A stretch of 50,403 bases of DNA from Clostridiaceae bacterium (lineage in GTDB: Bacteria > Bacillota > Clostridia > Oscillospirales > Acutalibacteraceae). The notes below the pieces were generated by a model, which ran no database searches, had not been told where the DNA came from, and saw only the letters and a list, made by a program, of their open reading frames with translations. Position 1 is the stretch's first letter. Every line of letters starts with the position of its first letter. Positions 4,779-46,639 of this stretch are shown in pieces. The stretch is from NCBI GenBank assembly GCA_016281115.1, contig JAEEHZ010000239.1, positions 1-50,403 on the forward strand. Reading direction: 5' to 3'. Position numbers and translations under genes: made by a program.

Positions 4779-5059
4779 TGCTACCTCCGCAGTTCTCCAT
4801 AATAAAGATAAACTGTTTTTATTATTCTATCATTTGTTTTGAATTTTGTCAACACTTTATGACTTTTTATTACATCTTTTAATATAATATTTTATTTTAT
4901 GACGTCAGACGGGTATTTATTCGTATTTGTTGTAAAATTAACAAAAATTTAAGATAAATTTATATATCCTTTTATATATTCCCATATCCCATTGTTAATA
5001 TGGTTTGCGGGTGATAAACCCCTCGTAAGTTTTTAAAAATGTTTATAAAACCTCGGTCG

Positions 5060-5083
5060 TTTGTCGTAAATTTTGTCGTAAAT
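5060..5083. repeat. perfect tandem 12-mer TTTGTCGTAAAT x2 abutting the integrase stop; possible arm-type recombinase site
   Basis: Exact tandem duplication read directly at 5060-5071 and 5072-5083. The functional role is inference. Confidence 0.5.
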
Positions 5084-5087
5084 AACA

Positions 5088-6356
5088 TTATGATATTTTG
5101 AACGCTCCGTCTAATCTCGCGAAACTCTCTAATTTCTTTTCTCTCGTCGTCTCATTATACACATCCATCGTAACTCTGATATCTGTATGCCCCATTACTT
5201 CTTGGATGAGTTTTACATTGCTTTCGTTCTCACACATTCTTGTGCAAAACGTATGACGCAGGTTGTGGCAGGAAAAATGCGGCAATAAGATTGGCTGCCG
5301 TCCTTCCGTCTTCGCGTTTTTCATCTCTTGAGTGTTAGCGTCTTTGATAATTCGCTTAATCCAGTAGTTGACATACCATCCCCTGAGTATTTTATCGCGT
5401 GTACAGCCAAATACAAACCCTGTATATCCGTCGACGCAGAAAGTATTAAATCCGTGTATTTTTTGATATTCGTATTCTTTTAACAGGGCAAGTTTTACCT
5501 CGGTGAACATTGGAATATCGCGCACACCCGCACGCGTTTTTGGGGTAGATATTCGCGCCCTTTGGCACGTTTCATTTTTGCGGGCATTGTAAAGCAAATT
5601 ATGATTAATTTTAATAATATTGTTTTCAAAATCACAATCTTCCCAACGCAATCCGCACAACTCTCCGATGCGTAGTCCGGTACCTAGCATAACGGTAAAT
5701 ATAGTTTTCAAATTTTTATATTTAGAGTTTTGAGAAATAAATTCTATAAATCTATCCTGTTGCTGTTCGGTTAAAGAGTGCCGCTTTTTTTGTTTTTCGG
5801 CAATATGTTGTATATGCAATTCTGACAGAACGCCGTCGGTGGGGTTACTACGGATTATGTTATCACGCACAGCCATATTAAATAACGGACATATCATTGT
5901 ATGAATGCCTCTTATTGTTCCCGATGTTAATTTTAAATTTATAGCTAGGTGGCTGTATAATTTTTTTATATCCGAACGCTCTATGTTGGAAATTTTCATG
6001 AAACCTATATTATGACGTATATATTTTTCATATCTATATAAATACTCTGATTTAGTAGTTGGTTTAATTATTTTATGCGAAACATACTCATCAAAACAAT
6101 CGTTTAATGTTGTTTCTTGTGATCTTTTTGTGTCTATATCGTCTTCGATATCCCTGAGGATATGTTTTTCAATATCCCTTAACGCTTCGCACTGCCGTTT
6201 ACCGGGTGGCACTTTGTCGGTAGCCACCAATTTCCAACTATATACGCTGTGTCTACCGCTACTGTCCGTATATTTAAACTCATACTTCCCGTCCGGTCTC
6301 TGGCTCTCGCTGTTTTGTAAAATTCTTCCTTTATTATCTCTTCTTTTTTCGCTCAT
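5088..6356 (-). CDS. int: tyrosine site-specific integrase
   Basis: TGLRIGELCGLRWED (catalytic Arg box) and CHNLRHTF...GHTDIRVTMDVYNE (HxxR...Y). Sits at the junction with tRNA-proximal host DNA. Confidence 0.9.
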   Translation of the reverse strand: MSEKRRDNKGRILQNSESQRPDGKYEFKYTDSSGRHSVYSWKLVATDKVPPGKRQCEALRDIEKHILRDIEDDIDTKRSQETTLNDCFDEYVSHKIIKPTTKSEYLYRYEKYIRHNIGFMKISNIERSDIKKLYSHLAINLKLTSGTIRGIHTMICPLFNMAVRDNIIRSNPTDGVLSELHIQHIAEKQKKRHSLTEQQQDRFIEFISQNSKYKNLKTIFTVMLGTGLRIGELCGLRWEDCDFENNIIKINHNLLYNARKNETCQRARISTPKTRAGVRDIPMFTEVKLALLKEYEYQKIHGFNTFCVDGYTGFVFGCTRDKILRGWYVNYWIKRIIKDANTQEMKNAKTEGRQPILLPHFSCHNLRHTFCTRMCENESNVKLIQEVMGHTDIRVTMDVYNETTREKKLESFARLDGAFKIS

Positions 6357-10521: not shown

Positions 10522-10531
10522 GTGTACCTCT

Positions 10532-10744
10532 TCATTTTTCCGCATTAAGCATATCAACTGCTTCGCGGAAGTTTAATAATACCCCGTCCAAACTTAACAC
10601 CGGTACTTCTGTGATTCCAAGAGCCAGCATCTCTTCTGTCGAGGTGTTTTCGGTGTAAGTAATATTCTTCTCAGAAAGCTTCTTTTTCAGCACATTGCAT
10701 CGGGGGCACCCGGTAGAATATAAAATAATGTTTTTATTAATCAT
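10532..10744 (-). CDS. glutaredoxin-like NrdH-type redoxin
   Basis: CPRC active site at the start of a 70-aa thioredoxin-fold-size protein. Start at 10744 behind AAGAGGTG. Confidence 0.7.
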   Translation of the reverse strand: MINKNIILYSTGCPRCNVLKKKLSEKNITYTENTSTEEMLALGITEVPVLSLDGVLLNFREAVDMLNAEK

Positions 10745-18077: not shown

Positions 18078-19439
18078 TTAATAGGGCATTTCGGGCACGT
18101 GTTGCTGCTTTGCTTCTTCGAGTAAGCAAATATTACCGTTAAAATCAATATTAATCCATTCTCCGTCTACATGTTGCATACCGTTTCTGTTTTGTGCCAC
18201 AACAAGTTTCTTTTGGCCGGAGTTTTCGCCATCCTGTTCGCATTCGTCAGGCGTTTTATCAGTCAACAGCATAATGGTAGACGCGTTCCTGGATATTTTA
18301 ACACTGTCTGCGAGTTTATTATTTGAAGTAAGCTGCGCTGCCGCTAATCCGGCTATACCAAGCTTCCCGCAAATTTCATTTTTAATTAAATCTGTGAGAT
18401 TCCCCAGCTCACTATATACAACATAGGCGTCGGTGCTGCTACCCGTGGGCTTTAAGTAATCAACAATAAGCACGTCGAGTTTACCGAACCTATGGGAAAC
18501 CTTTTTTACCGCGGTGTATATTGTTTGTTTGTCAAAAATCGGCAAATACATATGAACAAGCTTCTGTTGTTTTACCCATTCTATTTGTTTTCTGATTTTT
18601 ATTTCTTCATCTTTGTTATATCTGCCGCTTCTTATTCTGGAAAATTCAATTCCCGTTAAATGAGAAATCAATCTACACAAAAATAACCTGCTCGAAAGTT
18701 CACTATCAAGATAAAAAACCGTTTTACCCTGTCTTAAAATATCCACCGCTTCGTTCAGCATAAACATTGATTTTGCGCCCTTTGCGGGGGCTCCCACAAC
18801 CACTAACTCTCCTTGTTCTATTCTGACGTATTCGTTAAGAGTCGGAAATTTAAAAGGAATACCCGCGTCCCTGCCGTCTTGATGGTTTTCTATTTCAGTC
18901 CACAGTTCATCGACTACATCTTTAAACTCAGGCACGTCATCAACTGTTGAATAATCCACCATAATCTCATCTATTGCGGCATAAATTTTACTTTCAAGGT
19001 TCTTTTCGTCGAGCTTCGTACAGAGCCCCATGCACTCCTTCAACCTTTGAAACGTGTCTCTTCGGAATGCCGCGTCCACAACGTTTGACACCAGCATTTT
19101 ATATTCTTCCAGTGTTCCGCGCGCCAGTACGTCGCTCATATCGACAAGTTCCTGCAGTTTATCAACCGTTAGTTCGCTTGCGAACTTTCTTGTTGCCTCA
19201 GAGGAATTTAAATTCTCCATTATATTATATGGATCGATGGTGGTAATCCCACGTCTGGCAAGATCGCAAATTGCGGTATACACACATCTGTTTTCTTTGT
19301 TTGTAAAGTGTCCGGGTAAGAGATATTCTGAATAAAAAGAAAATTCCGGATTGTGAATCAATGTGGCAATAATACCCGATTCACTTTCTAAACTGTTAAT
19401 ATCTTCGGCTCTAACAATAACACTCACCTCATCTCCCAA
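18078..19439 (-). CDS. DnaB-family replicative helicase
   Basis: N-terminal DnaB-like domain and RecA-type core with Walker A GAPAKGAKS. 453 aa. Confidence 0.85.
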   Translation of the reverse strand: MGDEVSVIVRAEDINSLESESGIIATLIHNPEFSFYSEYLLPGHFTNKENRCVYTAICDLARRGITTIDPYNIMENLNSSEATRKFASELTVDKLQELVDMSDVLARGTLEEYKMLVSNVVDAAFRRDTFQRLKECMGLCTKLDEKNLESKIYAAIDEIMVDYSTVDDVPEFKDVVDELWTEIENHQDGRDAGIPFKFPTLNEYVRIEQGELVVVGAPAKGAKSMFMLNEAVDILRQGKTVFYLDSELSSRLFLCRLISHLTGIEFSRIRSGRYNKDEEIKIRKQIEWVKQQKLVHMYLPIFDKQTIYTAVKKVSHRFGKLDVLIVDYLKPTGSSTDAYVVYSELGNLTDLIKNEICGKLGIAGLAAAQLTSNNKLADSVKISRNASTIMLLTDKTPDECEQDGENSGQKKLVVAQNRNGMQHVDGEWINIDFNGNICLLEEAKQQHVPEMPY

Positions 19440-20215
19440 AATATACAGTCATCGTTCAAACCGCAAAGGAATGAACACATAAAGAATTCCCTGTTTGGCG
19501 GAAATTCCTCGGCCGTCTCAATATCATTAATTAATCCTGTCGCCCATTTAATCGTATCATTGTATGTATTTTTGCAAAACGGTTCTTCAATAAATACTCC
19601 TGTTCTAAAACAATTAAAACATAATGCTTTCGGAAAAACCCCGTACTCTTGTTTGATAGCCAACGAGTAAACATATAATTGTCTCAGCATTTCATCAAGC
19701 TCGTTATCTTTTAAGGTTGGGTTTGTCTTGTTACTGCGTGGCTTTAAGTCTCTGGATTTATTATCAACTATATAAAGTTCTCCGTCTTTTTCTCCGATAT
19801 AATCTATAAATCCCACGAATTGCTTATTGTTTAAACTAAAGTGAACTTCCTTTTCCACGTCGATCATTTTGAATGGCAATGGTTTGAAAGATTGCAAGTA
19901 CTCAGTTCCGGATTTAATATATTTTGAAACTATGTCTCCCGGCGGTCTTGCGCCCTCAACCTCGTTCTGAAAATCAAAGAGAAATTTTATTTGCATTTCT
20001 TCTTTTGAAATTTTACCGCGGTAATATTGCTCTAAGAGTTTGTGCATAAACGAGCCGTATGAACTGTAAAAGTTCTGGTGTTCTTGACAACCCTTTATGT
20101 ATTTCATAAAAAACCTATACGGACACTCGTTATAACACTGAAGCCGTGAATAACTCCAAGTCATCTCGCTTATTAGCGGTTGATAAATCGCGGCTGAATT
20201 ATTTTGCCCGCCCAT
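19424..20215 (-). CDS. PD-(D/E)xK exonuclease, Cas4/RecB-like with Cys cluster
   Basis: N-terminal C...CPYRF, core GFIDYIG...LYIVDNKS, C-terminal CSFLCGLNDDC. Confidence 0.7.
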   Translation of the reverse strand: MGGQNNSAAIYQPLISEMTWSYSRLQCYNECPYRFFMKYIKGCQEHQNFYSSYGSFMHKLLEQYYRGKISKEEMQIKFLFDFQNEVEGARPPGDIVSKYIKSGTEYLQSFKPLPFKMIDVEKEVHFSLNNKQFVGFIDYIGEKDGELYIVDNKSRDLKPRSNKTNPTLKDNELDEMLRQLYVYSLAIKQEYGVFPKALCFNCFRTGVFIEEPFCKNTYNDTIKWATGLINDIETAEEFPPNREFFMCSFLCGLNDDCIFWEMR

Positions 20216-20591: not shown

Positions 20592-21293
20592 TTACTCTCC
20601 TTTCGAAATAAATTTTGCATTAAAATCTTCTAATAATTTTGATGCTAACATAGGCTCCTTAATGGTAAGATAGTTTGCATTTTTTGCAAATTTGCTAATG
20701 AATTTCTTTGCCTCTTCGCTTTTATCCGGATTATCCGCAAGATATTGCTTAAGAATAGTATCGAATTTTTCGATAATACCCTCCGCAATTGCCTTATCCT
20801 CCGAGGCCTCTGCCGCCTTTTGCTTGCTGCGATACGCGTCAACGTCATATTCGAGACTTGCAATCTGAAAATAATTTGTTAAAAATTGCCTGTCCGTATA
20901 TGTTAATCCACTTCCTATCGCCTGGCTTGGATCGCTTTGAGAGCCTGCAACAAACCACGGCACCTCGATCACATCAAGCGGATCGTCTTCATTTACCCAC
21001 TTAAAAACCATATCTGCGCAGAAAAGCATCTCGGTTGTTGTTTGCTCATACATTTTACCGGTTTTATCAAATTTGGTATTAACAATTACATTTTGAGTAA
21101 TCTTTGAGGTTCCGGGTACTATAGTGGGTATAAGAGATACCCTGTATTTCTTCATACCCGCAGTAACGTTTGCAAGAATTTCACTGATATCGGTATAAGA
21201 GTAATTGTAGCCCTTTTTGCTTTTTTGCGCAACGTCGCTTATTGCTCTGATTTTAGCGAGTCTCTGAATCAAGCTTAATTTTACTTCTTCCAT
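20592..21293 (-). CDS. ERF-family single-strand annealing protein
   Basis: N-terminal ...KGYNYSYTDISEIL... is typical of ERF. Start trimmed to the ATG at 21293 (AGGAG upstream) because the longer ORF overlaps a tRNA. Confidence 0.6.
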   Translation of the reverse strand: MEEVKLSLIQRLAKIRAISDVAQKSKKGYNYSYTDISEILANVTAGMKKYRVSLIPTIVPGTSKITQNVIVNTKFDKTGKMYEQTTTEMLFCADMVFKWVNEDDPLDVIEVPWFVAGSQSDPSQAIGSGLTYTDRQFLTNYFQIASLEYDVDAYRSKQKAAEASEDKAIAEGIIEKFDTILKQYLADNPDKSEEAKKFISKFAKNANYLTIKEPMLASKLLEDFNAKFISKGE

Positions 21294-21334
21294 TTGGCTT
21301 CTCCTTTCTGAATTATTGTTTTGAGCTTTCGCTC

Positions 21335-21409
21335 TGGCAGGGATAGCTGGATTCGAACCAGCGAATGCCGGAGTCAAAGTCCGGTGCCTTACCGCTTGGC
21401 GATATCCCT
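21335..21409 (-). tRNA. tRNA-Gln (anticodon UUG)
   Basis: AGGGATATCGCCAAGCGGTAAGGCACCGGACTTTGACTCCGG...GCTGGTTCGAATCCAGCTATCCCTGCCA. All four arms pair. Confidence 0.9.
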
Positions 21410-26162: not shown

Positions 26163-26378
26163 TCAGCGTTTCATACGCTCATGAATTTGAAATTTTTCTT
26201 CAAGTTCTGTGGGAGAGCGAGCCCTACCAAGTTTATTTAATATCCCGTTGGATAACACTTCGTACAGAATAAAAAATTCTCTGTTATTTTTGCTCGTTAA
26301 TATACACACCGGATTACCATCTTTACCAATATATTTAACTTCTTTGTTTTCATTTTTCGGATATTTAATTTCCATCAT
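26163..26378 (-). CDS. hypothetical protein
   Basis: Start at the ATG at 26378 behind GAGGTG. Confidence 0.4.
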   Translation of the reverse strand: MMEIKYPKNENKEVKYIGKDGNPVCILTSKNNREFFILYEVLSNGILNKLGRARSPTELEEKFQIHERMKR

Positions 26379-27528
26379 ATAACACCTCGACGCAATCGGC
26401 AATAATCTTTGCGGCTTTTACAATCTCATCTTCGGTATTATATTTCGAAAAAGAGATGCGTATGGAATTTCGGGCAATATCCGGCGGCACACCCATAGCA
26501 ATCAGCACGTGACTTGGCTCGGACTCGTGACTCCTACAAGCAGATCCTGAAGATACGCAGACTCCTTTAACATCTAACATTAACAACAAGGTTTCGCTGT
26601 CAACACCCTTTAAACTTATATTTAATATTTTTCCGTGTTTGATTAATAAATTACCGTTGATATTAAGAATTGAGTCTAACCCCTTTGAAGCCAAAGCCGT
26701 TGCGAGCTCCTTATAAAAGACTTGTTTTAATATAGAGGTTTGAATATCGATCTCGTGAATTCGTGCTTTCATTAACTCGCAGGCTTTCCCGAATCCGACG
26801 ATTGCCGCAACGTTTTCTGTTCCGCCCCGCAGCCCGAATTCTTGAGCCACGCCTCCATATATAAGCGGTGTAAGATTTTTCGATCTTACAAATAAAGCTC
26901 CGCATCCTTTTGTGCCGTGTAGCTTATGGGATGATAACGATAAAAAATCACATCCGATTTTATTTACATCTAACTTACAACACCCCGCAGCCTGTACGCA
27001 GTCTGTGTGAAACATGATATTTTTTTCACGACATATTCTTGCTATTGACTCTATGTCGTTTTCAGAACCCGTTTCATTATTCACATACATCACAGAGACA
27101 ATTCCTGTGTTTTCAGTTATCTGTGCTTTTACTTGATTTGGCGAAACACATCCGTGTTTATCTACACCTGCGGTTGATTTATAAAATCCATGTTTTATAC
27201 ACATTGCTTGCACGGATTTAAGTACCGAGTCATGTTCAACCGCACTTGTAATAATATGATTTTTGCCTTGCGACTTTAAATAATTAGCCAATGAGAAGAA
27301 AACCATGTTATTTGACTCGGTTCCGCCCGATGTAAATATAATTTGATCAGGTTCAGCACCTATAAAATCCGCAACCTGAAATCGGGCATTTTCCACTGCT
27401 TTTTTCGCCTCTCTACCAAAAGCATATAACGCTCCGGGATTACCATACTGTTCCCGCATATATGGTATCATCGCATTCAGCACTTCGGGATCAGTTTGTG
27501 TTGTTGCGGCATTGTCAAGATAAATCAT
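26365..27528 (-). CDS. cysteine desulfurase (NifS/IscS class V aminotransferase)
   Basis: PLP lysine context SSHKLHG and catalytic Cys loop SSGSACRS. Start at the ATG at 27528 behind AAGGAG. Confidence 0.9.
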   Translation of the reverse strand: MIYLDNAATTQTDPEVLNAMIPYMREQYGNPGALYAFGREAKKAVENARFQVADFIGAEPDQIIFTSGGTESNNMVFFSLANYLKSQGKNHIITSAVEHDSVLKSVQAMCIKHGFYKSTAGVDKHGCVSPNQVKAQITENTGIVSVMYVNNETGSENDIESIARICREKNIMFHTDCVQAAGCCKLDVNKIGCDFLSLSSHKLHGTKGCGALFVRSKNLTPLIYGGVAQEFGLRGGTENVAAIVGFGKACELMKARIHEIDIQTSILKQVFYKELATALASKGLDSILNINGNLLIKHGKILNISLKGVDSETLLLMLDVKGVCVSSGSACRSHESEPSHVLIAMGVPPDIARNSIRISFSKYNTEDEIVKAAKIIADCVEVLYDGN

Positions 27529-27559
27529 AAGCACCACTCCTTTTGTACAAAATGTATTT

Positions 27560-28562: not shown

Positions 28563-29276
28563 TTATTCCTCCAATAAATATACTTCGGCATATTGCACTC
28601 CAAAACTTCGTGCTTCTTCGTGAGAGTCAAAATATATATCAATTCTATTACCCTTGATGTTGCCACCGCGGTCTTCCGCTACATATTCTTGTCCGTTAAT
28701 CAACACTCTTGTGCCATAAGGTATTATATTGGTATCAACCGCTATACTGTGATTAGGGCGTAACGCACATCCGCTCGCTCCGTATACAATTTCTTTTCCG
28801 TTTTCGTCAACCGGACGATTTAATGCATATTTACCACAGCATTTTTCACATGAGCAATACGCAGTTAATTTATAATTTCCCAAAAGAATGTCTCCCGACG
28901 TGTCTTTAAGTATACCTTGATACATATCATCGTTTGTTTTAATATCATATTCTATATGTATCTCTTTATATTTGGACGGAGGAGGGTGTATACTATCCAT
29001 TATTCTTACCACGGCGCATAGTGCATCTGATTGATATAAGTCGTCTTTGTTATTAATACATATTTCGATAGGTTCTTTAACATATGTATATGTTTTTAAT
29101 GTGTATTGTTTTATATCAACAAAACCACATAAACCGCATACACAAACTGCTGTTGCAATTCCTATACAAAGCATCTTAGTGTTCAATATTTCACCTTCTT
29201 TCTCTTTTTTTCTTATATGTGCATTATATATAACAAAGTCGCAATCTACACAACGTTTGCGCAGCGAGTCTTTCAA
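28563..29276 (-). CDS. 3D-domain cell-wall-active protein
   Basis: C-terminal IAVD...YVAEDRGG...RIDIYF is a 3D/MltA-like domain, with an internal hydrophobic anchor. Start uncertain: TTG at 29276 or ATG at 29174. Confidence 0.65.
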   Translation of the reverse strand: MKDSLRKRCVDCDFVIYNAHIRKKEKEGEILNTKMLCIGIATAVCVCGLCGFVDIKQYTLKTYTYVKEPIEICINNKDDLYQSDALCAVVRIMDSIHPPPSKYKEIHIEYDIKTNDDMYQGILKDTSGDILLGNYKLTAYCSCEKCCGKYALNRPVDENGKEIVYGASGCALRPNHSIAVDTNIIPYGTRVLINGQEYVAEDRGGNIKGNRIDIYFDSHEEARSFGVQYAEVYLLEE

Positions 29277-29457
29277 GGTTGCGCAGGACGGTGTGTTTTA
29301 ATTATTTAATCTATTTTCTTTGTGACACTTTTACTAACAGCAAAAGTAGTTGCTAGATGAATATTATTAACAACCAATATACATTGCGACGATTATGTAG
29401 TTCCTATAATTTATAACTGAATGTGGCTGGCAACAGCCATTCTTCGGTATACTCACA

Positions 29458-29534
29458 ACTCCGAAAAATTAGTTGGAAAGATTTCTTCGACGGTTTCCCG
29501 TCTTCGAAATCTTTCTAACTAATTTTGAAGGAGT
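29458..29534. other. 77-nt near-perfect long hairpin (about 34 bp with small internal loops)
   Basis: ACTCC..AAAATTAGTTGGAAAGATTT..CGACGG-tttc-CCGTC..AAATCTTTCTAACTAATTTT..GGAGT read directly. Confidence 0.6.
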
Positions 29535-29635
29535 AAAGCAACCATTGCGTTACTATTGCTGACAGCAAATAGCAATCGTACTTTTAAAAAAAATACAATT
29601 AATCTGCATTATAGGTTTAAAATATTTTTTTATTT

Positions 29636-30160: not shown

Positions 30161-30411
30161 TCCTCATCACTCCATTTCAACGCTTGACCACAATGCTCGC
30201 AGAATGTAGTACCACCATTGATGATGTGTTCCTGCACATTGTCCTTTGATATGCTTCCCCCACAATTTGGACATACTGCCCACATCTGTTCATTTTCGAG
30301 TGGGTTTTTCGGTATCTGCTTTTCAAGGGCTTTTTTGATATTTTCATAATCTTCCAACATCCCCACAAACATCTGGTTCATAATGCGGGTTAATGTTTCT
30401 TTATTTGTCAT
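30157..30411 (-). CDS. zinc-ribbon protein (paralog family Z)
   Basis: CPNCGG...[14 protein letters not shown]. Shares the KALEKQIPK and CGQAL.WSDEE segments with its neighbour. Confidence 0.5.
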
Positions 30412-31022
30412 TCTTCTACCTCGCTATTGCTTGCTAACTCTGCAAGTTCTGATATTTTAAGTTCTCTCAAAAATGTTATTTCTGTTCCAACGCACTTGCT
30501 GTCGCAGTCATTTTCGCCTGTAACGCCTTTAAGTTCAACTTCAAATACACGAACATCTTTACCAATATTACCGCTGTAATAATTGAAAATATCGAGCGGA
30601 GACCTGCAAGCGTGAAAACCGCTTATACATAATTCCGCTTTATCGGTCTTATAAGTTTTCCCAAGTTTATACTGAAAACCATTACAACGCATCTTGCCGT
30701 TTGTTGCTTTGAAATAGAGGTCTTTGTATGTTTTAAGACCGTAACAACCTATGCTCGTAAGCGTGCTGCAATTACAGAACGCACATTTTCCTATGCTCGT
30801 AACGCTATCAGGTATTATTACGCCTTTAAGGCTTTTGCAACCGTAAAATGCATAATTTCCTATGCTCGTAACGCTGTTGGGAATATTTATACTTGTAAGA
30901 TTGGTGCAATAGGCGAAAGCACAATTACCAATACTCGTCACACTCTCTGGAATGTTTATGTTTGTTTTATTGCCTTCGTACTGTATCAATTCCCCATTTT
31001 CAATAACAAAATCTTTGTTCAT
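30408..31022 (-). CDS. BspA-type leucine-rich-repeat protein with conserved C-terminal domain (paralog 1 of 4)
   Basis: Repeats of ...P.SVTSIG..AF..C..L... then YFKATNG.M.C.GFQY...[13 protein letters not shown]...CVGTEITF. No signal peptide. Confidence 0.65.
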
Positions 31023-31324: not shown

Positions 31325-31773
31325 TCTTTTACCTCACTTTTAAGCCATTTGAGCCAATGTTCATAAGGCGAAGGAAAATAAATATCTACCAATTCCGCAA
31401 AGTCCGTAATTTGTTTGTTTATCCACTCCGCCAATTCCTCATCGCTCATCTCTCTTATCTTATCGCCGTTTGTCAATGAACCATTGTTGTATTTCCATTC
31501 TTTGTATGTCATAATTTTCGGATATTCTGCACCTGTATCTATGCAATGCTCAAATCCCCAAGATATTACATAATCTATATATCTTCCCCAATCTTCCGTG
31601 TCATCTTCATCCGAAATCATTGCTTGTTTCAACTCTATGCCGCTTTGCTCAAGCCATCCAAATTCATGTTCAAGATAGTCTATCGTTCCGTCGCTGGATA
31701 TTCCGTTTGTTTCTGCGTTTCTTATTGCGACATTTTCGTCAACACTTAATTCTACAAATACTTTTCTTTTCAT
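31321..31773 (-). CDS. hypothetical protein with TNGDKIR-MSD-ELA module
   Basis: AGGAGG RBS. C-terminal [18 protein letters not shown]...[11 protein letters not shown]. Confidence 0.5.
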   Translation of the reverse strand: MKRKVFVELSVDENVAIRNAETNGISSDGTIDYLEHEFGWLEQSGIELKQAMISDEDDTEDWGRYIDYVISWGFEHCIDTGAEYPKIMTYKEWKYNNGSLTNGDKIREMSDEELAEWINKQITDFAELVDIYFPSPYEHWLKWLKSEVKE

Positions 31774-31964
31774 ATTTCCTCCTGTTACAGTATGATTTTA
31801 CAACATTCAAGGTTGTAATTTTTTTGTTTTACATTGTGGTACAATTATAAACGAAGACGTTCTTAAAGAGAAACCATCTCTGGTTATAATAATAGTTTAC
31901 AATCTCTCATTGTGTTTTACCGGGAAGGTTCGAGCACTGTGACTCATAGTCTATATCTGCTGAC

Positions 31965-31977
31965 TTTTTTTTTTTTT
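31965..31977 (-). repeat. A13 homopolymer (RT sense)
   Basis: 13 consecutive T on the plus strand, counted directly. Confidence 0.95.
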
Positions 31978-31980
31978 GAA

Positions 31981-32036
31981 CTTCTTTTCTTTCTTTCCCT
32001 AGTTTTCCTTTCTTTCTCCTGCCTTACTTTTTTTTT
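31981..32036 (-). repeat. polypurine run (RT sense) ending in A9
   Basis: Plus strand is CTTCTTTTCTTTCTTTCCCTAGTTTTCCTTTCTTTCTCCTGCCTTAC plus T9. Almost pure pyrimidine. Confidence 0.9.
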
Positions 32037-32104
32037 CGAGTAAAGCTGTGGTTGCGCGGATTGGTCAGGGGTGTTCGTCGAGCGAGGTTCTCTCTTTCCG
32101 GTCT

Positions 32105-32140
32105 GTTCAAATTGTTACTTTTGCTATCAGCGAAAAGCAC
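32105..32140 (-). ncRNA. stem-loop + GUAAC-box element, copy D2
   Basis: RT sense GCTTTTCGC-TGATA-GCAAAAGT then AACAATTTGAAC. Shares the exact 14-mer AAGTAACAATTTGA with copy U. Confidence 0.6.
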
Positions 32141-32281
32141 ATTCAGATATGAATGTAATTTCATTGTAAACTCAGATTAATTGCTTGTCATCTACATAGA
32201 TTGGATACCTGTTGCCGGGAGTGGAGGCGAGTGCATCTAACATCATTGCGTTCGTTCCTTGGAAATCTTCCTCGTTCTTGA

Positions 32282-32298
32282 TTTTTTTTTTTTTTTTT
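32282..32298 (-). repeat. A17 homopolymer (RT sense)
   Basis: 17 consecutive T on the plus strand. Confidence 0.95.
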
Positions 32299-32346
32299 AA
32301 ACGCCTAACCGCAATGCCTAATAATACTAGAATTCTTTTCCTGCTA

Positions 32347-32363
32347 TTTTTTTTTTTTTTTTT
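32347..32363 (-). repeat. A17 homopolymer (RT sense)
   Basis: 17 consecutive T on the plus strand. Confidence 0.95.
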
Positions 32364-32430
32364 GCAGTAGGTTTGTTTCTTTCCTGCACTGACGCTTCTT
32401 GGTTTGGTGCAGTAGGGCATTGTGTTTTCA

Positions 32431-32443
32431 TTTTTTTTTTTTT
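32431..32443 (-). repeat. A13 homopolymer (RT sense)
   Basis: 13 consecutive T on the plus strand, starting 2 nt after copy D1 in RT sense. Confidence 0.95.
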
Positions 32444-32445
32444 CC

Positions 32446-32479
32446 GACAATGAGTTACTTCTGCTTACAGCTAAAAGTG
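32446..32479 (-). ncRNA. stem-loop + GUAAC-box element, copy D1
   Basis: RT sense ACTTTTAGC-TGTAA-GCAGAAGT then AACTCATTGTC, about 45 nt after the RT stop codon. Confidence 0.6.
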
Positions 32480-32522
32480 TCCATTAAGCATGGACTATAC
32501 ATGACATAGCAAATTATTTATC

Positions 32523-33662
32523 TTATGATTTTAAATCGCTTCGAATTAATTCAACAATATTCACATTGAATTTATTACCAATATGTTCTACCAGCTTATC
32601 TATCGAAGTTCCTTCTACCATACGGTAATAATTCCTGTACCCCTCCATTATCTGGACATCGGATACGTCCCAGGGCTTTCCGTTTTGTTTATCCATGACA
32701 TATGATGCTAGCATCGCTTGAAATTGTCTTTTCTTTTTATGCCCTACGGTAATTTGGTTATCTTTATTCAACATTACCCCAAGATTCCAGTTGGAGCCGG
32801 CAGATGAACCGTATCGCGTTTTCTTTGAATTGATTGTAAATGGAGCTTCGAAATTGTTCAAAGTGTTGATAATAAACTGTTCTATTTCTTTAAATTTAAA
32901 TGTATATTTTGAGGATATTAAAAAATCGTCTGCATATCTGGTATAAACATAATGCTGGTTGTTATATTCTCTTAAACCATTTGAAAGTTTGAAGTCTATG
33001 GGTATCATCATTACATTTGTGATAACTGGGGATATCGGGGTACCCTGCGGAAGTCCTCCGTCCAGAAATGCAAGTTCCAGCGCCTGACTTAATTCTTTTT
33101 TTCCGATATCATGTTTCATAATTTCCGAAAACGGATAAATCATTGAAAACATCTTTAACACAAATTCCAGACTTGTGCTGCCAAAAAAGTTTGATAAATC
33201 ATATTTTCCAAACCATTTGCTTTCATTTGCCTGATGTCGTTTTACCGCATCAATCGTGCTGCGTTTTCTTATATATGCAAACGCCGACGTATGATATAAG
33301 ACGTGGAAGTCGTTTTCAAAAATTGTTTTAAGTCTGCGTAAAGCGTCCATAAGTTCGGGCTCCGGCGCATCTATCTTACGCAACCCGCCGCTTTTTTTAG
33401 GTATATAAAATTCTCGATATAAAGATTTTCTTGGCTTATTACGCAGTTCCTCGGTTGATTTATTAAACTGTATTAATTTAATGATAAGTTCGCCAATATT
33501 TAACCCGTACGGGCGTTTGCTATTTATATTTTTTACCTCATATGTACGTGTATTTGTAATATTTGGACTAATAATCTGTGGTTTTATTTCCGCTTCGAAT
33601 AAAAATTCTTCCAAAGTCATTTGGTGATACTTTGGCGGCTGTTTAATCGTAATATAAGTCAT
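32523..33662 (-). CDS. reverse transcriptase, retron/DRT-like (RT domain only, about 380 aa)
   Basis: YREFYIPKKSGGLRKIDAP, KYDLSNFFGS (motif A), LPQGTPISPVITN (motif B'), YTRYADDFLISS (motif C), KKTRY...NLGVML. Start at the ATG at 33662 behind GAGGTG. Confidence 0.9.
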   Translation of the reverse strand: MTYITIKQPPKYHQMTLEEFLFEAEIKPQIISPNITNTRTYEVKNINSKRPYGLNIGELIIKLIQFNKSTEELRNKPRKSLYREFYIPKKSGGLRKIDAPEPELMDALRRLKTIFENDFHVLYHTSAFAYIRKRSTIDAVKRHQANESKWFGKYDLSNFFGSTSLEFVLKMFSMIYPFSEIMKHDIGKKELSQALELAFLDGGLPQGTPISPVITNVMMIPIDFKLSNGLREYNNQHYVYTRYADDFLISSKYTFKFKEIEQFIINTLNNFEAPFTINSKKTRYGSSAGSNWNLGVMLNKDNQITVGHKKKRQFQAMLASYVMDKQNGKPWDVSDVQIMEGYRNYYRMVEGTSIDKLVEHIGNKFNVNIVELIRSDLKS

Positions 33663-33886
33663 TTTTTTCACCTCGTTATTTAGATTTACTGTAATCAAAT
33701 AGTATTGAGCTGCATCGCTCTCCATCTGATGGAAGGCCGATCTTTTCTGGGAATTTCTTTAGGATTTCTAAATTTGGCGGTTGGTTGGATGTGTTAATGT
33801 GTGACAATTGCGTTTATGTCTATATTAAATTCGATTGTTCTGGTGGCAGCATTATTTGCATCCTGGTGCTGGTTATTCTTTTTCCC

Positions 33887-33920
33887 GTCAAATTGTTACT
33901 TCCGCCTTCGGCAAGAAGCT
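33887..33920 (-). ncRNA. stem-loop + GUAAC-box element, copy U (upstream of RT)
   Basis: RT sense AGCTTCTTGC-CGAAG-GCGGAAGT then AACAATTTGAC, inside the 290-nt ORF-free leader of the RT. Confidence 0.6.
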
Positions 33921-33951
33921 ACCGTTAGGTAAATAACATTACAGTATTTTT

Positions 33952-34395
33952 TTATATTTTTTTAGATCTTAAACTTTTATTAATTCTTTCTTGCAGGCGT
34001 ATTGGTTTTCCTTTACGCATATCAGTTTGCCCGGGTTTTATGCGAGTGTTTAGTCCCGACGTCATTAAGCGCTCCGGCATATGGTTTAATAACGCATGCG
34101 TTTTCATCTCAGCAGAATACGCCTCTGATGTAGTTTTACAACGCCGACATAATCCGAATTTTTCTTTATAATTATCTATAGTCATGCTATGACTTTCTTT
34201 GACGTGAGAGCCCAGGCGTTTATATGCTCTGCCACAAATATGGCATACTACATACCCACGATAATCTTTAACAATTACACCGTCGGGCGGAAGATCGTTC
34301 ATTTCTCCCCCGGTTTTTAGATACCTATAACAAGCCTGACATCTGGATCCATATGGGCGTCCGCGGATTACATCTCCGCAAAAGGAACATGTCAT
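33952..34395 (-). CDS. zinc-finger protein with Ros/MucR-like DNA-binding motif
   Basis: CHICGRAYKRLGSHVKESHSMTIDNYKEKFGL resembles the MucR C2H2-type finger. N-terminal CSFCG...CQAC ribbon. Start at 34395 behind GGGAGGGGG. Confidence 0.5.
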   Translation of the reverse strand: MTCSFCGDVIRGRPYGSRCQACYRYLKTGGEMNDLPPDGVIVKDYRGYVVCHICGRAYKRLGSHVKESHSMTIDNYKEKFGLCRRCKTTSEAYSAEMKTHALLNHMPERLMTSGLNTRIKPGQTDMRKGKPIRLQERINKSLRSKKI

Positions 34396-34577
34396 ATTAC
34401 CGCCCCCTCCCAACAACCATCTACAGAGACGTCTGCTAGATTAGATATCAAATCATCCGCATCTACCTCGTCAAACATTTTAAGCGCCATGTCGCATGCT
34501 TCGTCTTCTGAGTCGGCGTCGATTTTAAAATTCCACGATCCTTCGTAGTGTACAGCAACATTGTAAAACATAGTCAT
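34392..34577 (-). CDS. hypothetical acidic protein
   Basis: 61-aa ORF in the operon. Confidence 0.4.
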   Translation of the reverse strand: MTMFYNVAVHYEGSWNFKIDADSEDEACDMALKMFDEVDADDLISNLADVSVDGCWEGAVI

Positions 34578-34780
34578 TCTCCTTTCTTTGTTTTGTTATC
34601 AAGTAAATTTATATTATCGGTTTGGCGTGCAAGTTTTACAGCCAATGTAATAATTGATTCAATCATTCTATCCGTATAAGCACACTCATTTCCGAAATTG
34701 TTTGTGTAGTCGATATATGCACGTGACTCAGACATGATACCAGAGACGCAACTACGTATTTTTATTTCTTTGGTTGTCAT
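34574..34780 (-). CDS. hypothetical protein
   Basis: Start at the ATG at 34780 behind AAGGAG. Confidence 0.4.
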   Translation of the reverse strand: MTTKEIKIRSCVSGIMSESRAYIDYTNNFGNECAYTDRMIESIITLAVKLARQTDNINLLDNKTKKGE

Positions 34781-35441
34781 TTTTTCGACTCCTTTCATTG
34801 TTTTTGCTTGCTAACTCTGCAAGTTCAGATATTGTCAATTCTCTTATAAATGTTATCTCTGTTCCGACGCATTTGCTATCGTGTTTATTTTCATTTGTAA
34901 CGCCTTTCAAAGCCACCTCGAAAAGACGAATATCTTTATCAATTTTTCCGTTGTAATAATTGAATACGTCTAACGGTGACCTGCAAGCGTGAAAACCACA
35001 TTCACATAATTGCGCTTTATCGATTTTGTAAGTCTTAACAAGTTCATATTGAAATCCTTGACATTGCATATCACCATTCGTTGCTTTAAAGTAGCGGTCT
35101 TTGTAAGTTTTAAGGCTGCTGCAATTGTAGAATACTCTGCCTCCGATGCTCGTCACACTGTCGGGAATAGTTATGTTTGCAAGACTGTAGCAGTTATTGA
35201 ACGCATATTTTCCTATGCTCGTCACACTATTGCCAATTATAGCATTTGTAAGGCTACTACAATTATCGAACACACAGTTCCCGATGCTCGTCACACTGTC
35301 GCCAATTATTATGCTTGTAAGATTACTACAACCATAGAACGCCCAGTCTTTTATACTTGTAACGCTGTTTGGAATAACCACCTTTGTACCTCTTCCGTTG
35401 TATTTAATCAATGTTCCATTTTCGATTTCAAATTCTTTCAT
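34752..35441 (-). CDS. BspA-type LRR protein with conserved C-terminal domain (paralog 2 of 4)
   Basis: Same repeat and C-terminal [15 protein letters not shown]...CVGTEITF architecture. Confidence 0.65.
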   Translation of the reverse strand: MKEFEIENGTLIKYNGRGTKVVIPNSVTSIKDWAFYGCSNLTSIIIGDSVTSIGNCVFDNCSSLTNAIIGNSVTSIGKYAFNNCYSLANITIPDSVTSIGGRVFYNCSSLKTYKDRYFKATNGDMQCQGFQYELVKTYKIDKAQLCECGFHACRSPLDVFNYYNGKIDKDIRLFEVALKGVTNENKHDSKCVGTEITFIRELTISELAELASKNNERSRKNDNQRNKNT

Positions 35442-35455: not shown

Positions 35456-36040
35456 TCATTTTTCGCTTGCTAATCTCGCAAGTTCCGATATTGTCAACTC
35501 TCGCAAAAATGTTATCTCTGTTCCAACACATTTTCTATCACCGAAGTGGTTTTCCTCTGTTACGCCTTTGAGTTCAACCTCGAATAACCGTACATCTTTG
35601 CCAAGTTCACCGTAATAATGATTGAACACATCTAACGGACTGCGGCACGCGTGAAAACCATACTCGCATAGTTTTGCTTTGTCGGTTTTATAAGTTTTCC
35701 CGAGTTCATACTGAAAATCTCGACAACGCATGTTTCCGTCCGTTGCTTTGAAATAGCGGTCTTTATAAGTTTTAAGGCTTTCGCAAGCGTAGAACGCACC
35801 GCCTCCTATACCTGTTACGCTATCGGGAATATTTATACTCGTAAGACTGCTACAACTATCGAAAGCATAATGTCCTATGCTCGTAACACTATCGGGGATA
35901 GTTATGCTCGTAAGATTTATGCAACCGTCGAAAGCACAATTACCAATGCTCGTAATCCCGTCTGGGATTTTTACATTTGTATTTTTGTCTGTATATTTAA
36001 TTAAAACTCCGTCTTTAATAACAAAATCTTTGTTTTTCAT
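35456..36040 (-). CDS. BspA-type LRR protein with conserved C-terminal domain (paralog 3 of 4)
   Basis: Same architecture, in tandem with paralog 2. Confidence 0.65.
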
Positions 36041-39700: not shown

Positions 39701-40372
39701 TTAAAATACATCAAGCATTCCGTGAAAACCGTCAATTTGCGTGAACTTCCAGATACCGTTTCCTTTTACAAAATTGATATAATTATTTACTCCAAGCGCG
39801 CATATAAGCCGCACCGTTGTCGCTACCCCGAGCGTCACTCCGCAAGCCGATACCGGAGTTTCTTCCGCCGCTTCTTCGTGTGAAAATTGCATAGATTTTA
39901 ACAAATCCTGTTTCATTTTATAATCGCTCCAGTCCGCCGCATAATGCTGTGCGGATTCAAGTAAAGTTCTGAAATCAAATACCGCTTTTACATACGGACT
40001 GTCCATATGTTTTTCCACGATACTTCTCCGCAATTCAATATTATCTACCGCTATAAAAATATATCCCGACATTAATTTGCCCTGCCACCCCTCGGGTTTA
40101 AGTTCAATTTCGTCTGCGATTTCCGGATTAATATCTATAAGAATGTCTTTTAACGCATCAACTTTTAATTTACCTATATCCTGCTGGCGAAACATCTGGT
40201 TACAAATATTATGAGCTTCAACTTTATCAAAGTCCCACAGCGTCATTTTTGTTATACCGCATCTCGCTAAATTTTCTGCAAGTGTAGAACCCACAGAGCC
40301 ACAACCAACAATATGAATGCGGGATGTGTCTTTTTCCGGCTGGAAAAATTCATAAGACTTGCTTAAATCCAT
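39701..40372 (-). CDS. ThiF/MoeB-family E1-like adenylyltransferase (short form)
   Basis: Rossmann GxGxxG in IVGCGSVGSTLAENLARCG and DFDKVEAHNICNQ. 223 aa. Confidence 0.75.
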   Translation of the reverse strand: MDLSKSYEFFQPEKDTSRIHIVGCGSVGSTLAENLARCGITKMTLWDFDKVEAHNICNQMFRQQDIGKLKVDALKDILIDINPEIADEIELKPEGWQGKLMSGYIFIAVDNIELRRSIVEKHMDSPYVKAVFDFRTLLESAQHYAADWSDYKMKQDLLKSMQFSHEEAAEETPVSACGVTLGVATTVRLICALGVNNYINFVKGNGIWKFTQIDGFHGMLDVF

Positions 40373-40940: not shown

Positions 40941-41807
40941 TTAATCCATGCAATATCCGTGGCGGCTATACCAACTCACAATATCATCATCGTCATCAAG
41001 CGCGTCAAAATGCTGTTCTTTAATGCGTCCGCCGCGTATTCCCCTTCGTCTGTGTCTTGTGGGTATATCCTCTTCTTTGTCTGTTGTTGTCTTTGAGTCG
41101 GACGTAAATCCAATAGTATTTCCGGGCTTTTGTGTGCTTATTACATGTGTGCTTATTACAACGGCTTTATCGCAAACCATTGTTTTGGCGTCAGTGATAA
41201 ATTTTTCAAGTCCCGTGCCGTCGTCCAAAATCTCAACTTTACAGTCTGATGTTTCGAATAATATGTTCTTTGCCATATCATATATTTTTATTGTCTTGTC
41301 GCCTTTTTTGTTCCATATCATAAATATATAAAACATTGTGTCATCAAGCTGTTCGAGGATTCTATCATATAAGGCGGTATCGACAGAAGACGGCGATGTT
41401 CCCATGTTGACATGCGAGTGCCCCTGCATTCTGATATTGTTAAACACGTCATCTTCGTGTGTCATAAGCCACGTCTGATATTTCGCCTGATCTGTGGTTA
41501 CCGTTGCACCGGTTACTTCCTGTGGATAAACAAGAATGTCGGTGATATAATATTCGTCTTTTGATGCGTCGTCACCTCTTTTTGCTATGCCGTGCCAAGC
41601 GACTTCTTTATCAAATTCCTTAATTAATGTTTGCATTTTTAACCAAGCAAGCTCTGTAAAATAAACAGTCGCTTCTCGTTTAATACCCGAAAACGACTTC
41701 GAGAAACTTATTTTGCCATCGGATAATTTAGCGGCTTGAATCGCTTCATTAAACGCTCGCTTTATTTCTTCTATGTTTTCCGGGGTTAATTTAATTATTT
41801 TAGCCAT
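40941..41807 (-). CDS. JAB/MPN (JAMM) metallopeptidase-domain protein
   Basis: JAMM signature H-S-H-x7-S-x2-D in QGHSHVNMGTSPSSVD. Confidence 0.75.
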   Translation of the reverse strand: MAKIIKLTPENIEEIKRAFNEAIQAAKLSDGKISFSKSFSGIKREATVYFTELAWLKMQTLIKEFDKEVAWHGIAKRGDDASKDEYYITDILVYPQEVTGATVTTDQAKYQTWLMTHEDDVFNNIRMQGHSHVNMGTSPSSVDTALYDRILEQLDDTMFYIFMIWNKKGDKTIKIYDMAKNILFETSDCKVEILDDGTGLEKFITDAKTMVCDKAVVISTHVISTQKPGNTIGFTSDSKTTTDKEEDIPTRHRRRGIRGGRIKEQHFDALDDDDDIVSWYSRHGYCMD

Positions 41808-45795: not shown

Positions 45796-46049
45796 CACAG
45801 CCTCTGTCCGCAAAAATGGCAATAATTCGGTATATGCGGTTTTCCATTCTTAAACGGGTTTATAAGAGGGAATTTACAATTTGGACAAACTAAAAATATA
45901 TCGCAAGTATCATCTGCAAATTCTAACGGCTTCGTCGGTGTTTGCTTTTTCAAAGCCGCTATTGCTAAATCATATAGTTCTTTTTTTACTTCACACTCTG
46001 TTGCGCTTTTACCCGCAACAAACATTTCTATCGCTTTCTCGTATGTCAT
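45795..46049 (-). CDS. zinc-ribbon protein (paralog family Z)
   Basis: MTYEKAIE...ALKKQTP...CPNC...CHFCGQRL parallels 29882-30160. Confidence 0.45.
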   Translation of the reverse strand: MTYEKAIEMFVAGKSATECEVKKELYDLAIAALKKQTPTKPLEFADDTCDIFLVCPNCKFPLINPFKNGKPHIPNYCHFCGQRL

Positions 46050-46639
46050 TCTTCTACCTCGCTATTGCTTGCTAACTCTGCAAGTTCCGATATTGTAAGT
46101 TCCCGCAAGAATGTAATCTCTGTTCCAACGCACTTGCTGTCTTCGTTGCTTTCGTCTGCAACGCCTTTCAAATCCACCTCAAAAAATCGAACATCTTTGC
46201 CTAATTTTCCGCAATAGTAATTGAACACATCTAACGGAGATTTGCAGGCGTGAAAACCATATCTACACAATTTTGCTTTATCGGTTTTGTAAGTCTTGCT
46301 TAACACATACTGAAAACCTCTACAACAACGCATATTGCCGTCTGTTGCTTTAAAATAGCGGTTAGAATAGGTTACAAGGCTTTCGCAACCCCAAAATGCA
46401 CTAAGTCTTATACTCGTCACGCTATCGGGGATATTTATGCTTGTAAGGCTCGTACAGCCGTAAAACGCACAATTTCCTATACGTGTTACGCTGTCAGGAA
46501 TCGTTATGCTTGTAAGAATGCTACAATGTTCAAACGCATAGGCTCCAATGCTCGTAACACCGTCGGGAATAACAACATCTGTTTCTGTTCCGTGATATTT
46601 AATGAGTTTTCCGTTTTCAATAACAAAATCTTTGTTCAT
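46046..46639 (-). CDS. BspA-type LRR protein with conserved C-terminal domain (paralog 4 of 4)
   Basis: Same architecture. The 3' 100 nt is about 80 percent identical by eye to 30419-30520. Confidence 0.65.
   Translation of the reverse strand: MNKDFVIENGKLIKYHGTETDVVIPDGVTSIGAYAFEHCSILTSITIPDSVTRIGNCAFYGCTSLTSINIPDSVTSIRLSAFWGCESLVTYSNRYFKATDGNMRCCRGFQYVLSKTYKTDKAKLCRYGFHACKSPLDVFNYYCGKLGKDVRFFEVDLKGVADESNEDSKCVGTEITFLRELTISELAELASNSEVEE

Follow-up and report, generated by a model that had tools for sequence, protein, structure and literature searches.

What are the short stem-loops that recur on both sides of a reverse transcriptase (RT) gene in a phage-like genome of gut Clostridia, and do they serve that RT? 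The question is raised by a 50,403-nt stretch of contig JAEEHZ010000239.1 (assembly GCA_016281115.1, deposited as Clostridiaceae bacterium), referred to below as the window, which covers about 50 kb of such a genome. An initial annotation, made from the letters of the window, had described three homologous modules bracketing the RT gene, each composed of a bulged stem-loop and a GUAAC box, and had suggested a repeated protein-recognition element such as an RT handle placed in front of a template. We followed up this suggestion in the window and in homologous loci. The outcome makes it probable that the stem-loops belong to an array of retron-like noncoding RNAs (ncRNAs) serving one phage-encoded retron-type RT.

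A bulged hairpin and a UAAC box recur beside homologous RT genes

The three modules, U upstream of the RT gene and D1 and D2 downstream of it, were found on the minus strand where they had been placed, with matching sequences and coordinates. The D1 module begins 46 nt past the RT stop codon (32523), and the D2 module lies 340 nt beyond D1. Read in the RT sense and numbered along the window, their stems are as follows.

33918-33911 and 33905-33899, minus strand: U stem, 5' arm CUUCUUGC, loop CGAAG, 3' arm GCGGAAG, followed by UAAC AAUUUG
32477-32470 and 32464-32458, minus strand: D1 stem, 5' arm CUUUUAGC, loop UGUAA, 3' arm GCAGAAG
32137-32130 and 32124-32118, minus strand: D2 stem, 5' arm CUUUUCGC, loop UGAUA, 3' arm GCAAAAG

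The common position of the bulge, the pair changes C-G/U-G/U-A and U-G/U-A/U-A between copies, the 14-mer AAGTAACAATTTGA and the purine-rich tails were all borne out. U, D1 and D2 form the top direct-repeat family of the region, and in 50 kb the box AAGTAACWNWTTG has exactly three occurrences, one at each of these modules. The loop had been described as 5 nt long; its letters are correct, but it consists of a covarying closing pair (C-G/U-A/G-C) and a triloop. At the other end, a G/A-U pair extends the base of the hairpin, which we call P1.

A covariance model of P1 and the box (R1), whose seed was picked for pairing and included U, D1 and D2, recovered these three copies at E = 4e-13, 5e-11 and 7e-10 and matched a fourth copy outside the seed, D3, at E = 5e-6, all E-values being rough. 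Scanning the whole window with filters off revealed no further module beyond five. Homologues of the RT number in the thousands, many of them 70-80% identical and located on contigs of 60-140 kb. We compared the window with 84 loci of viral origin, whose RTs are 47-74% identical, and with 80 loci taken out of genome assemblies, using 5-11 kb per locus. All of these relatives are metagenomic, with hosts assigned by binning of metagenome-assembled genomes, mostly to Oscillospiraceae, Lachnospiraceae, Ruminococcus and Acutalibacteraceae. The model search of homologous loci for which the initial annotation had called showed that the module recurs 314 times beside homologous RTs at E <= 0.01 (212 matches in viral loci and 102 in genome loci), always on the RT-sense strand. 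A pattern search of the relatives likewise found the bulged hairpin with a UAAC or UAUC box on the RT strand in every case, with very different stem sequences, including CUCUGUAU/AUCAGAG, CGUCGAGG/UCCGGCG and CACUAUGG/CCUAGUG. The module co-occurs with this RT clade alone, and 21 loci with about 30%-identical RTs (cyanobacterial and myxobacterial retrons) gave no match to it.

The stems covary. Pairs were counted in two alignments, of which the first is partly circular because its seed had been picked for pairing, and the second contains only non-seed sequences, though aligned by the model. We observed pairing in 99.9% of cells and double-sided changes at 7/9 and 8/9 pairs in the two alignments; compensatory cells numbered 216 and 159, compared to 49 and 41 in shuffles, and none of 500 shuffles reached the observed value. 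In controls in which the pairing was slid, only 27-46% was paired. Moreover, the fold works in the RT sense only, as had been argued from the G-U pairs of the three copies. All nine pairs are intact in 107 of 110 distinct copies, versus 7 of 110 on the opposite strand, and G-U makes up 15.5% of P1 cells, so that the strand argument holds at the level of the family. In the same 110 copies, the C of UAAC is kept in 108 and the G of UUG in every one, and the 11 columns 3' of the box are almost exclusively A or G.

Stem-loop and box stand in the middle of a larger unit with complementary ends

We inspected the 70 nt upstream of every module and found there a second hairpin (P0), a 5' motif and, through this motif, a closing helix. 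The P1/box module is thus the middle part of a unit of about 150-320 nt, which reads, from 5' to 3': 5' closing arm, invariant G, NAUA linker, P0, P1, UAAC-AANUUG, polypurine tract, interior, (A)UGUAG and 3' arm.

The short homology that had been noticed before the stem (CCTAACGG in U) is present, its nature being that of the P0 hairpin. P0 directly adjoins P1; its sequence varies, and its loop is often GNRA, UUCG or UUU. A hairpin of at least 4 bp was found at a fixed register in 92% of 92 distinct segments composed of linker and P0, with a mean z of -3.6.

Located 4-5 nt ahead of P0, the 5' motif (CUGUAAU, CUGUAAC or UGCAAU) precedes the invariant G and NAU(A/U) and is the reverse complement of the 3' box at the end of the unit (AUGUAG-AUUACAG/GUUACAG/AUUGCAG). 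The two arms covary between units, as in CGGCAAU:AUUGCCG, CUGUAUU:AAUACAG, CUGUGAU:AUCACAG, CUGCGAU:AUCGCAG, CUAUAAU:AUUAUAG and CCCAAU:AUUGGG. A perfect 7-nt complement of the cognate 5' arm was found downstream in 148 of 186 distinct units, compared to a mean of 24.8 (maximum 36) with non-cognate arms. An unbiased search for the longest helix gave a median of 9 bp versus 7 in controls; a G after the 5' strand and a G before the 3' strand were each present in 135 of 161 units, although this criterion had not been used in the search. In an alignment based on sequence only, 89.3% of closing-helix cells are paired, double-sided changes affect 9/9 pairs, and 0/500 shuffles reached this level.

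Two other pairings were considered. In the first, the GUAAC box would pair with a GUUAC-like 3' box; this was rejected, since variants of the two boxes do not covary, and the 3' box has its true partner in the motif 5' of P0. The second would join the polypurine tract to pyrimidines located ahead of the 3' box, and was dropped, as duplex energies of cognate and non-cognate combinations differ only weakly (p ~0.09).

The window contains five units

The description of three copies bracketing the RT is correct for these three, but the total is five. It understates the layout, because two more copies (D3 and D4), the P0 hairpin and the closing helix had been missed. All five units have perfect arms of 6-9 bp followed by a G. 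Their parts are listed here, with bit scores from the covariance model.

33687-33946, minus strand: unit U (260 nt), directly upstream of the RT gene
33946-33938 and 33695-33687, minus strand: closing arms of U, 5' UACUGUAAU and 3' AUUACAGUA, exact reverse complements
33937, minus strand: candidate priming (branching) G of U, directly after the 5' arm, with a putative 2'-OH role by analogy with retrons
33921-33930, minus strand: P0 hairpin of U, ACC UAAC GGU
33898-33919, minus strand: P1 hairpin of U, with G-U closing pair, 5 bp, one bulged nucleotide, 3 bp and triloop; 56.6 bits
33878-33898, minus strand: UAAC-AAUUUG box and purine-only tract of U
32186-32506, minus strand: unit D1 (321 nt), beginning 17 nt past the RT stop; 44.2 bits
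32506-32448, minus strand: parts of D1, 5' arm UGUCAU 32506-32501, G 32500, P0 32495-32479, P1 32478-32457, box 32457-32448
32197-32186, minus strand: 3' end of D1, AUGUAG 32197-32192 and 3' arm AUGACA 32191-32186
Between the box and the 3' end of D1, minus strand: interior of D1, A-rich, with A13 and two A17 tracts
31895-32171, minus strand: unit D2 (277 nt), 14 nt after D1; 48.7 bits
32171-32108, minus strand: parts of D2, 5' arm GUUUACAAU 32171-32163, G 32162, P0 32157-32139, P1 32138-32117, box 32117-32108
31903-31895, minus strand: 3' arm of D2, AUUGUAAAC, its arms also being found as an inverted repeat of the region
29403-29615, minus strand: unit D3 (213 nt), missed by the initial annotation; 29.7 bits, E 5e-6, outside the seed
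29615-29542, minus strand: parts of D3, 5' arm CCUAUAAU 29615-29608, G 29607, P0 29600-29574, P1 29573-29552, box 29552-29542
29410-29403, minus strand: 3' arm of D3, AUUAUAGG, preceded by an interior hairpin of about 35 bp
29238-29390, minus strand: unit D4 (153 nt), degenerate, 12 nt after D3; weak match, 11 bits
29390-29328, minus strand: parts of D4, 5' arm GUCGCAAU 29390-29383, G 29382, P0 29377-29347, bulge-less P1 29346-29328
29251-29238, minus strand: 3' end of D4, with GUGUAG 29251-29246 and 3' arm AUUGCGAC 29245-29238; UGUC replaces UAAC in this unit

Degenerate D4 has a perfect 8-bp closing helix and a canonical GUGUAG preceding its 3' arm. The downstream units form two tandem pairs, D1/D2 with a gap of 14 nt and D3/D4 with a gap of 12 nt, the second pair lying about 2.5 kb downstream. 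Five genes and a terminator separate D2 from D3; a strong hairpin resembling an intrinsic terminator lies at 29663-29640 (minus strand; 10 bp, 7 of them G-C, with a U-run), 25 nt upstream of D3.

The RT is retron-type by sequence and predicted fold

The gene around which the units are arranged is the following.

32523-33662, minus strand: RT gene, 379 aa, Pfam RVT_1, with YADD active site and QGTPISP motif

The RT is retron-type by sequence and predicted fold. Its best PADLOC match is RT_II-A (1.7e-46), and the NCBIfam model retron_St85_RT matches it at 3.5e-51 and 174 bits; a group II RT model scores below the retron models. The best sequence matches in the PDB are the retron RTs Ec83 (6e-19), Ec78, St85, Ec67 and Ec86, and no single retron type is clearly favoured. 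With an AlphaFold model of moderate confidence (pLDDT 73.6), the top 13 Foldseek matches were all retron RTs. Behind them ranked group II RTs, DRT2/DRT9 (ranks 19-39) and, in 40th place, the RT of a diversity-generating retroelement (DGR; 1.2e-6, versus 9e-14 for retron RTs). The RT has QGTPISP where DGR RTs have a motif of their own type. According to the alignment, the N-terminus is about 55 residues longer than that of Ec83, and the RT has no fused domain.

In some relatives (L049, L055, L072 and L079, ~2782-3014; probably also L107, L120 and L130), the RT gene is longer by about 231 nt (77 codons), which are inserted in frame where residues 94 and 95 adjoin in the window RT. An intron was considered for this segment and rejected, since it is in frame and has no Rfam match; it may be an extra domain or insert.

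Units keep their positions and handles, and their interiors turn over

In the relatives, the upstream unit was found in 78 of the 80 loci that have upstream sequence, 209-571 nt before the RT start, over a range of RT identity of 47-100%. A unit at the D1 position, +35 to +100 nt from the RT stop, is present in 54 of 84 relatives, and the D2 position lies at about +310 to +360. Loci have 0-6 modules, three being commonest, and the full architecture was observed in about 80% of the units of every position class. In the 50-kb window, all modules cluster within 4.7 kb of the RT.

The interiors, which are A/C-rich, behave differently from the handles, i.e., the conserved 5' domains. In 42 locus pairs whose RT genes are at least 97% identical, handles are 99.2-99.7% identical, third codon positions of the RT 97.4% and interiors 91-93%. 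Compared to the closest relative of the window, L165 (RT 96.1%), handles are 98-100% identical and interiors 60-68%, with many indels and sharp boundaries. No interior motif was common to different lineages; those found are lineage-specific. Folding of the interiors varies, D3 having a z of -10.9 and some relatives being strongly structured as well. In D1 and D2, poly-A tracts (A13, A17, A17, A13) lie at about 32445-32433, 32364-32348, 32298-32282 and 31977-31965; in L165 (6200-7000), (AT)n or ATAC-rich simple sequence takes their place.

Between close relatives, the interiors show a mixed spectrum of substitutions, dominated by transitions and without A-specificity. We also considered that the RT hypermutates the interiors inside a population and rejected this, as an independent sample was identical over 2405 nt including D1 and D2. 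Two contigs of the 97% type differed by two changes in a unit interior and one in the RT. Since samples are near-identical and show no ongoing diversification, we ascribe the turnover of interiors to evolutionary divergence or recombination.

A retron-like reading of the units

According to a review of prokaryotic RTs, retron ncRNAs have complementary 5' and 3' ends, a conserved branching G in msr whose 2'-OH acts as primer, short msr stem-loops in varying number and an msd hairpin (PMC8632793). We observed ends that are complementary, an ncRNA adjoining the RT gene, a G next to the 5' arm, and msr-type stem-loops in the form of the covarying hairpins P0 and P1. Because these features match the list and U occupies the position of a retron ncRNA, each unit can be read as a retron-like ncRNA. 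By this analogy, the proposed RT handle in front of a template is supported and finds a more specific place, the module lying in the 5' domain of what would be an msr-msd-like unit beside a retron-type RT.

In the mechanism that we propose, the units would be transcribed in the RT sense, probably within a long operon transcript, and their ends would pair in the closing helix of 6-9 bp with a G inside on each strand. The 5' domain, composed of linker, P0, P1, UAAC-AANUUG and polypurine tract, is what different units and different phages have in common, and is the likely RT recognition handle, equivalent to msr. The interior of about 100-250 nt, ending in (A)UGUAG by the 3' arm, is the likely template, equivalent to msd. 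Once bound to the handle, the RT would use as primer the 2'-OH of the G next to the closing helix, the G of UUG being an alternative. It would then copy the interior from the side of the 3' arm toward the handle and may stop near the UAAC box and polypurine tract. Each unit would yield one RT-DNA species, giving a predicted repertoire of five in the window and of 2-6 in relatives. Most likely, one RT uses several interchangeable template RNAs. Candidate roles of the products are prophage-borne defence with an unrecognised effector, decoys versus host immunity, and donors for an Erf-type annealing protein.

A more far-reaching version is tentative and, in our estimate, less probable than its failure. 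It holds that the locus is a natural "multiplexed retron", in which a core syntenic phage RT works with 2-6 interchangeable templates of one handle, whose turnover exceeds that of the RT gene by a factor of roughly ten or more. The resulting changeable RT-DNA repertoire would benefit the phage rather than host defence, for example as decoys or sponges versus host immune sensors or as single-stranded donors for the Erf/exonuclease module.

Several observations weigh against the retron-like reading. The 174 bits of the RT lie below the curated NCBIfam cutoff of 235 bits. The "VTG" signature of RT motif 7 is found in most retrons (PMC8632793), and in the alignment HVTGV of Ec83 corresponds to WNLGV of the window RT, NLG being invariant in the clade. 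Library scans of the neighbours identified no known retron effector adjoining the RT. Only part of the interiors fold into a long hairpin of the msd type, as in D3, and others are A-rich and barely structured (z = 0.15 for U, mean of -1.5 over 139 interiors). The 5' arm of D3 (CCUAUAAU) contains TATAAT and sits after the terminator, which makes its inclusion in the transcript questionable. P0 and P1 stand between the candidate priming G and the presumed template, an order also known from retrons, but the G of UUG is invariant as well and might just as well be the functional residue instead of the G on the side of the arm. In the closing helix, 11 G-U cells stand against 10 A-C cells; since the two are so close, this helix alone cannot tell the strand, or RNA from DNA, as the hairpins can.

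Other explanations of the units

The units could instead be cis-acting leader or operator RNAs from which no cDNA is made, their handle being bound by the RT or by another phage protein. Like lambda nut (boxA plus boxB) or HK022 put, the handle would control translation, stability, processing or antitermination of the operon, and the closing helix would only place it by the ribosome-binding site of the next gene. Indeed, the 3' arm lies 25-38 nt before a start codon for U (the RT gene), for D4 in the window and, in L035 and other relatives, for D2 (in L035 that of a metallophosphatase gene). A handle made of a hairpin and a linear box is also nut-like, as are several copies with one direction of transcription. 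The main point against such a role is that D1 and D3 precede another unit and not a gene. Moreover, the units occur only with this RT clade and, in the 50-kb window, close to the RT; the architecture, in which the closing helix has a G inside on either strand, agrees with that of retron ncRNAs in each feature; and 150-250 nt of unconstrained interior would be superfluous for an operator. We therefore consider this explanation fairly unlikely.

It is unlikelier still that the units are independent structured small RNAs of a phage RNA-gene island, adjacent to the RT via synteny alone. The surroundings lend this idea some support, with tRNA arrays, tmRNA and drum RNA just downstream in many relatives and ThiF upstream in 126 of 144 loci. 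However, the upstream unit keeps a narrow fixed position in nearly all loci despite mosaic flanking genes, over the whole range of RT identity (78/80; 47-100%), and a retron-type RT beside RNAs of retron-type architecture is unlikely to be a coincidence.

We give very little credence to an explanation at the DNA level, in which the arms would be recombinase or invertase sites around cassettes that are exchanged or inverted, or the arms and boxes would be promoter elements. This would account for interiors that are replaced or diverge far faster than their flanks, with sharp boundaries, for the resemblance of many 5' arms to -10 hexamers (TGTAAT, TACAAT, TATAAT) and for the similar numbers of A-C and G-U in the closing helix. 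Yet none of the 314 modules is inverted, and P0 and P1 need G-U pairs and fold in the RT sense only. In addition, arms such as CUGUAAC, CGGCAAU, CCCAAU and CUGCGAU would be poor -10 elements, and their complementarity is kept nonetheless. When the 3' box or 5' arm was tried as a sigma-70 -10 element, promoter-like sites were at background (21 versus 18.8 expected).

That the units are template repeats of a DGR rewriting the variable region of a target gene, as the A-rich interiors and the usual assumption that gut phage RTs are DGR RTs (PMC8241571) might suggest, can practically be dismissed, since the substitution spectrum is mixed and the window holds no template repeat/variable repeat (TR/VR) partner, no related copy of any unit lies elsewhere in the window, and the RT has QGTPISP, is closest to retron RTs and finds a DGR RT only in 40th place by fold.

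A TR/VR scan gave 12 candidate windows, all of which were paralogous LRR_5/DUF7666 gene ends or similar, with mismatches that are not A-specific. The source of this false DGR-like signal is a set of four paralogous BspA-type LRR_5 + DUF7666 genes on the minus strand (30408-31022, 34752-35441, 35456-36040 and 46046-46639). They have near-identical 3' ends and a common junction AGCGAGGTAGAAGAATGAC overlapping the next start codon, and look like duplicated cassettes.

Genomic neighbourhood of the RT and its units

The neighbours of the RT gene are a Ros/MucR zinc-finger protein, the LRR_5/DUF7666 paralogues and small open reading frames without an assigned function. The Ros/MucR-type gene (33952-34416, minus strand) lies directly upstream of U and is kept in L165, L166 and L171; it is absent from more distant relatives and is thus not a conserved partner of the RT. 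Further upstream, a ThiF/E1-like gene is present in 126 of 144 loci (39701-40372 in the window). In 104 of 144 loci (40941-41807 in the window), a protein of 260 aa with the motif HxH...S..D is encoded; to the eye it is JAB/MPN-like, and Pfam gave no match. Neither is a known retron effector. In relatives, genes of this pair are found for example at 2003-2677 in L130 and at 14-796 in L013; in the window, about 5.7 kb of extra genes lie between U and the pair.

On the other side, the RT block borders a phage RNA-gene island. Arrays of tRNA genes lie right downstream of the RT and its units in many relatives (at 4700-6300 in many loci), with up to 16 tRNAs and a tmRNA in L052 (2543-2921) and a drum RNA in L035 (5205-5310).

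The block stands among replication and recombination genes, namely those for PolIII alpha, DnaB, primase, Erf and exonuclease. A recombination module at 20592-21377 and 19424-20215 (minus strand) consists of an Erf-like single-strand annealing protein together with an exonuclease. Erf-type annealing proteins are of the kind used with retron RT-DNA in engineered recombineering. The syntenic setting is more like that of a core phage function than of a defence island, which we take only as a lead. The window also encodes, in this phage-like genome, a GdpP-like protein of the cyclic-di-AMP phosphodiesterase type (PAS, GGDEF_GdpP, DHH and DHHA1 domains; 1048-3066, minus strand), a class-V aminotransferase (26365-27537) and an anaerobic ribonucleotide reductase (8593-10557).

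Comparison with known systems

No Rfam family, including retron msr and RT-1 to RT-19, reached its gathering score over the units in the window and 20 relatives. In the same region and relatives, no Rfam intron family matched either, so that a group II intron was not found. A sub-threshold RT-17 match (21.9 versus 40.4 bits, E 0.73) at 31709-31814 (minus strand) lies outside the units, spans the start of a 150-aa gene after D2 and is probably due to chance. Cultured phages (INPHARED) gave no nucleotide match. In the full-text literature, of which our coverage is incomplete, we did not find natural multi-ncRNA retrons or this phage RT clade described; the search yielded engineered retron arrays only.

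Should the units be reverse transcribed, it would follow that retrons can be multiplexed in nature, and a compact handle (P0/P1/UAAC with a closing helix of 6-9 bp) would be available for engineering in hundreds of natural variants. The use that a phage would make of a fast-evolving RT-DNA repertoire would then be a question in its own right. The comparative data allow direct tests, since they predict the handle, the putative priming G residues and the limits of the template to the nucleotide. The locus also shows that not every abundant gut-phage RT is a DGR enzyme.

DGRs resemble the locus in combining a phage RT with an adjacent noncoding template region, but here neither a TR/VR pair nor an adenine-specific pattern nor Avd was found, and the RT belongs to another clade. 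Lambda nut and HK022 put also consist of a short hairpin and a conserved linear box in a few copies with one transcription direction. They are without a closing helix, a link to an RT or tandem units with long interiors, however, and lie just downstream of early promoters. In DRT2 and DRT9, the RT gene is likewise flanked by a conserved structured ncRNA with handle and template, but these systems have RTs of UG/Abi-related clades, a single ncRNA of another architecture, and rolling-circle or homopolymer synthesis. Engineered "multitrons" (bioRxiv 10.1101/2023.07.17.549397) have several ncRNA/msd units per retron RT and produce several RT-DNAs per cell; they are synthetic, based on Eco1 and made for multiplexed recombineering, whereas the array described here is natural and its products are hypothetical.

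Retrons combine one RT, one ncRNA and an effector, act as bacterial anti-phage sensors and are widely reused for genome editing; about 75% of them have an associated effector gene or fused domain. They are the nearest system (e.g., Retron-Eco1/Ec86, with the St85/Ec78/Ec83 group closest by RT sequence and fold). The likeness extends to a retron-clade RT, an ncRNA directly upstream of the RT gene on the same strand, covarying complementary ends and a G right after the 5' arm. It further includes short stem-loops followed by a variable region, sometimes with a long hairpin, and a handle that is conserved next to a template that is divergent. In contrast to retrons, the loci studied here have 2-6 units per RT, among them tandem units that lie downstream of the gene and at a distance of kilobases. 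Their closing helix is short (6-9 bp), they contain in addition a conserved UAAC-AANUUG box and a polypurine tract, and in many of them the interior is A-rich with weak structure. In the RT, NLG replaces VTG, and the N-terminus has about 55 extra residues relative to Ec83; no effector was recognised, and the genes occupy a syntenic site in phage-like gut Clostridia genomes of about 60-140 kb and not a defence island. What emerges from the comparison is a retron RNA logic in another setting, with several putative template RNAs, one handle and a single divergent RT in a large phage lineage of gut Clostridia.

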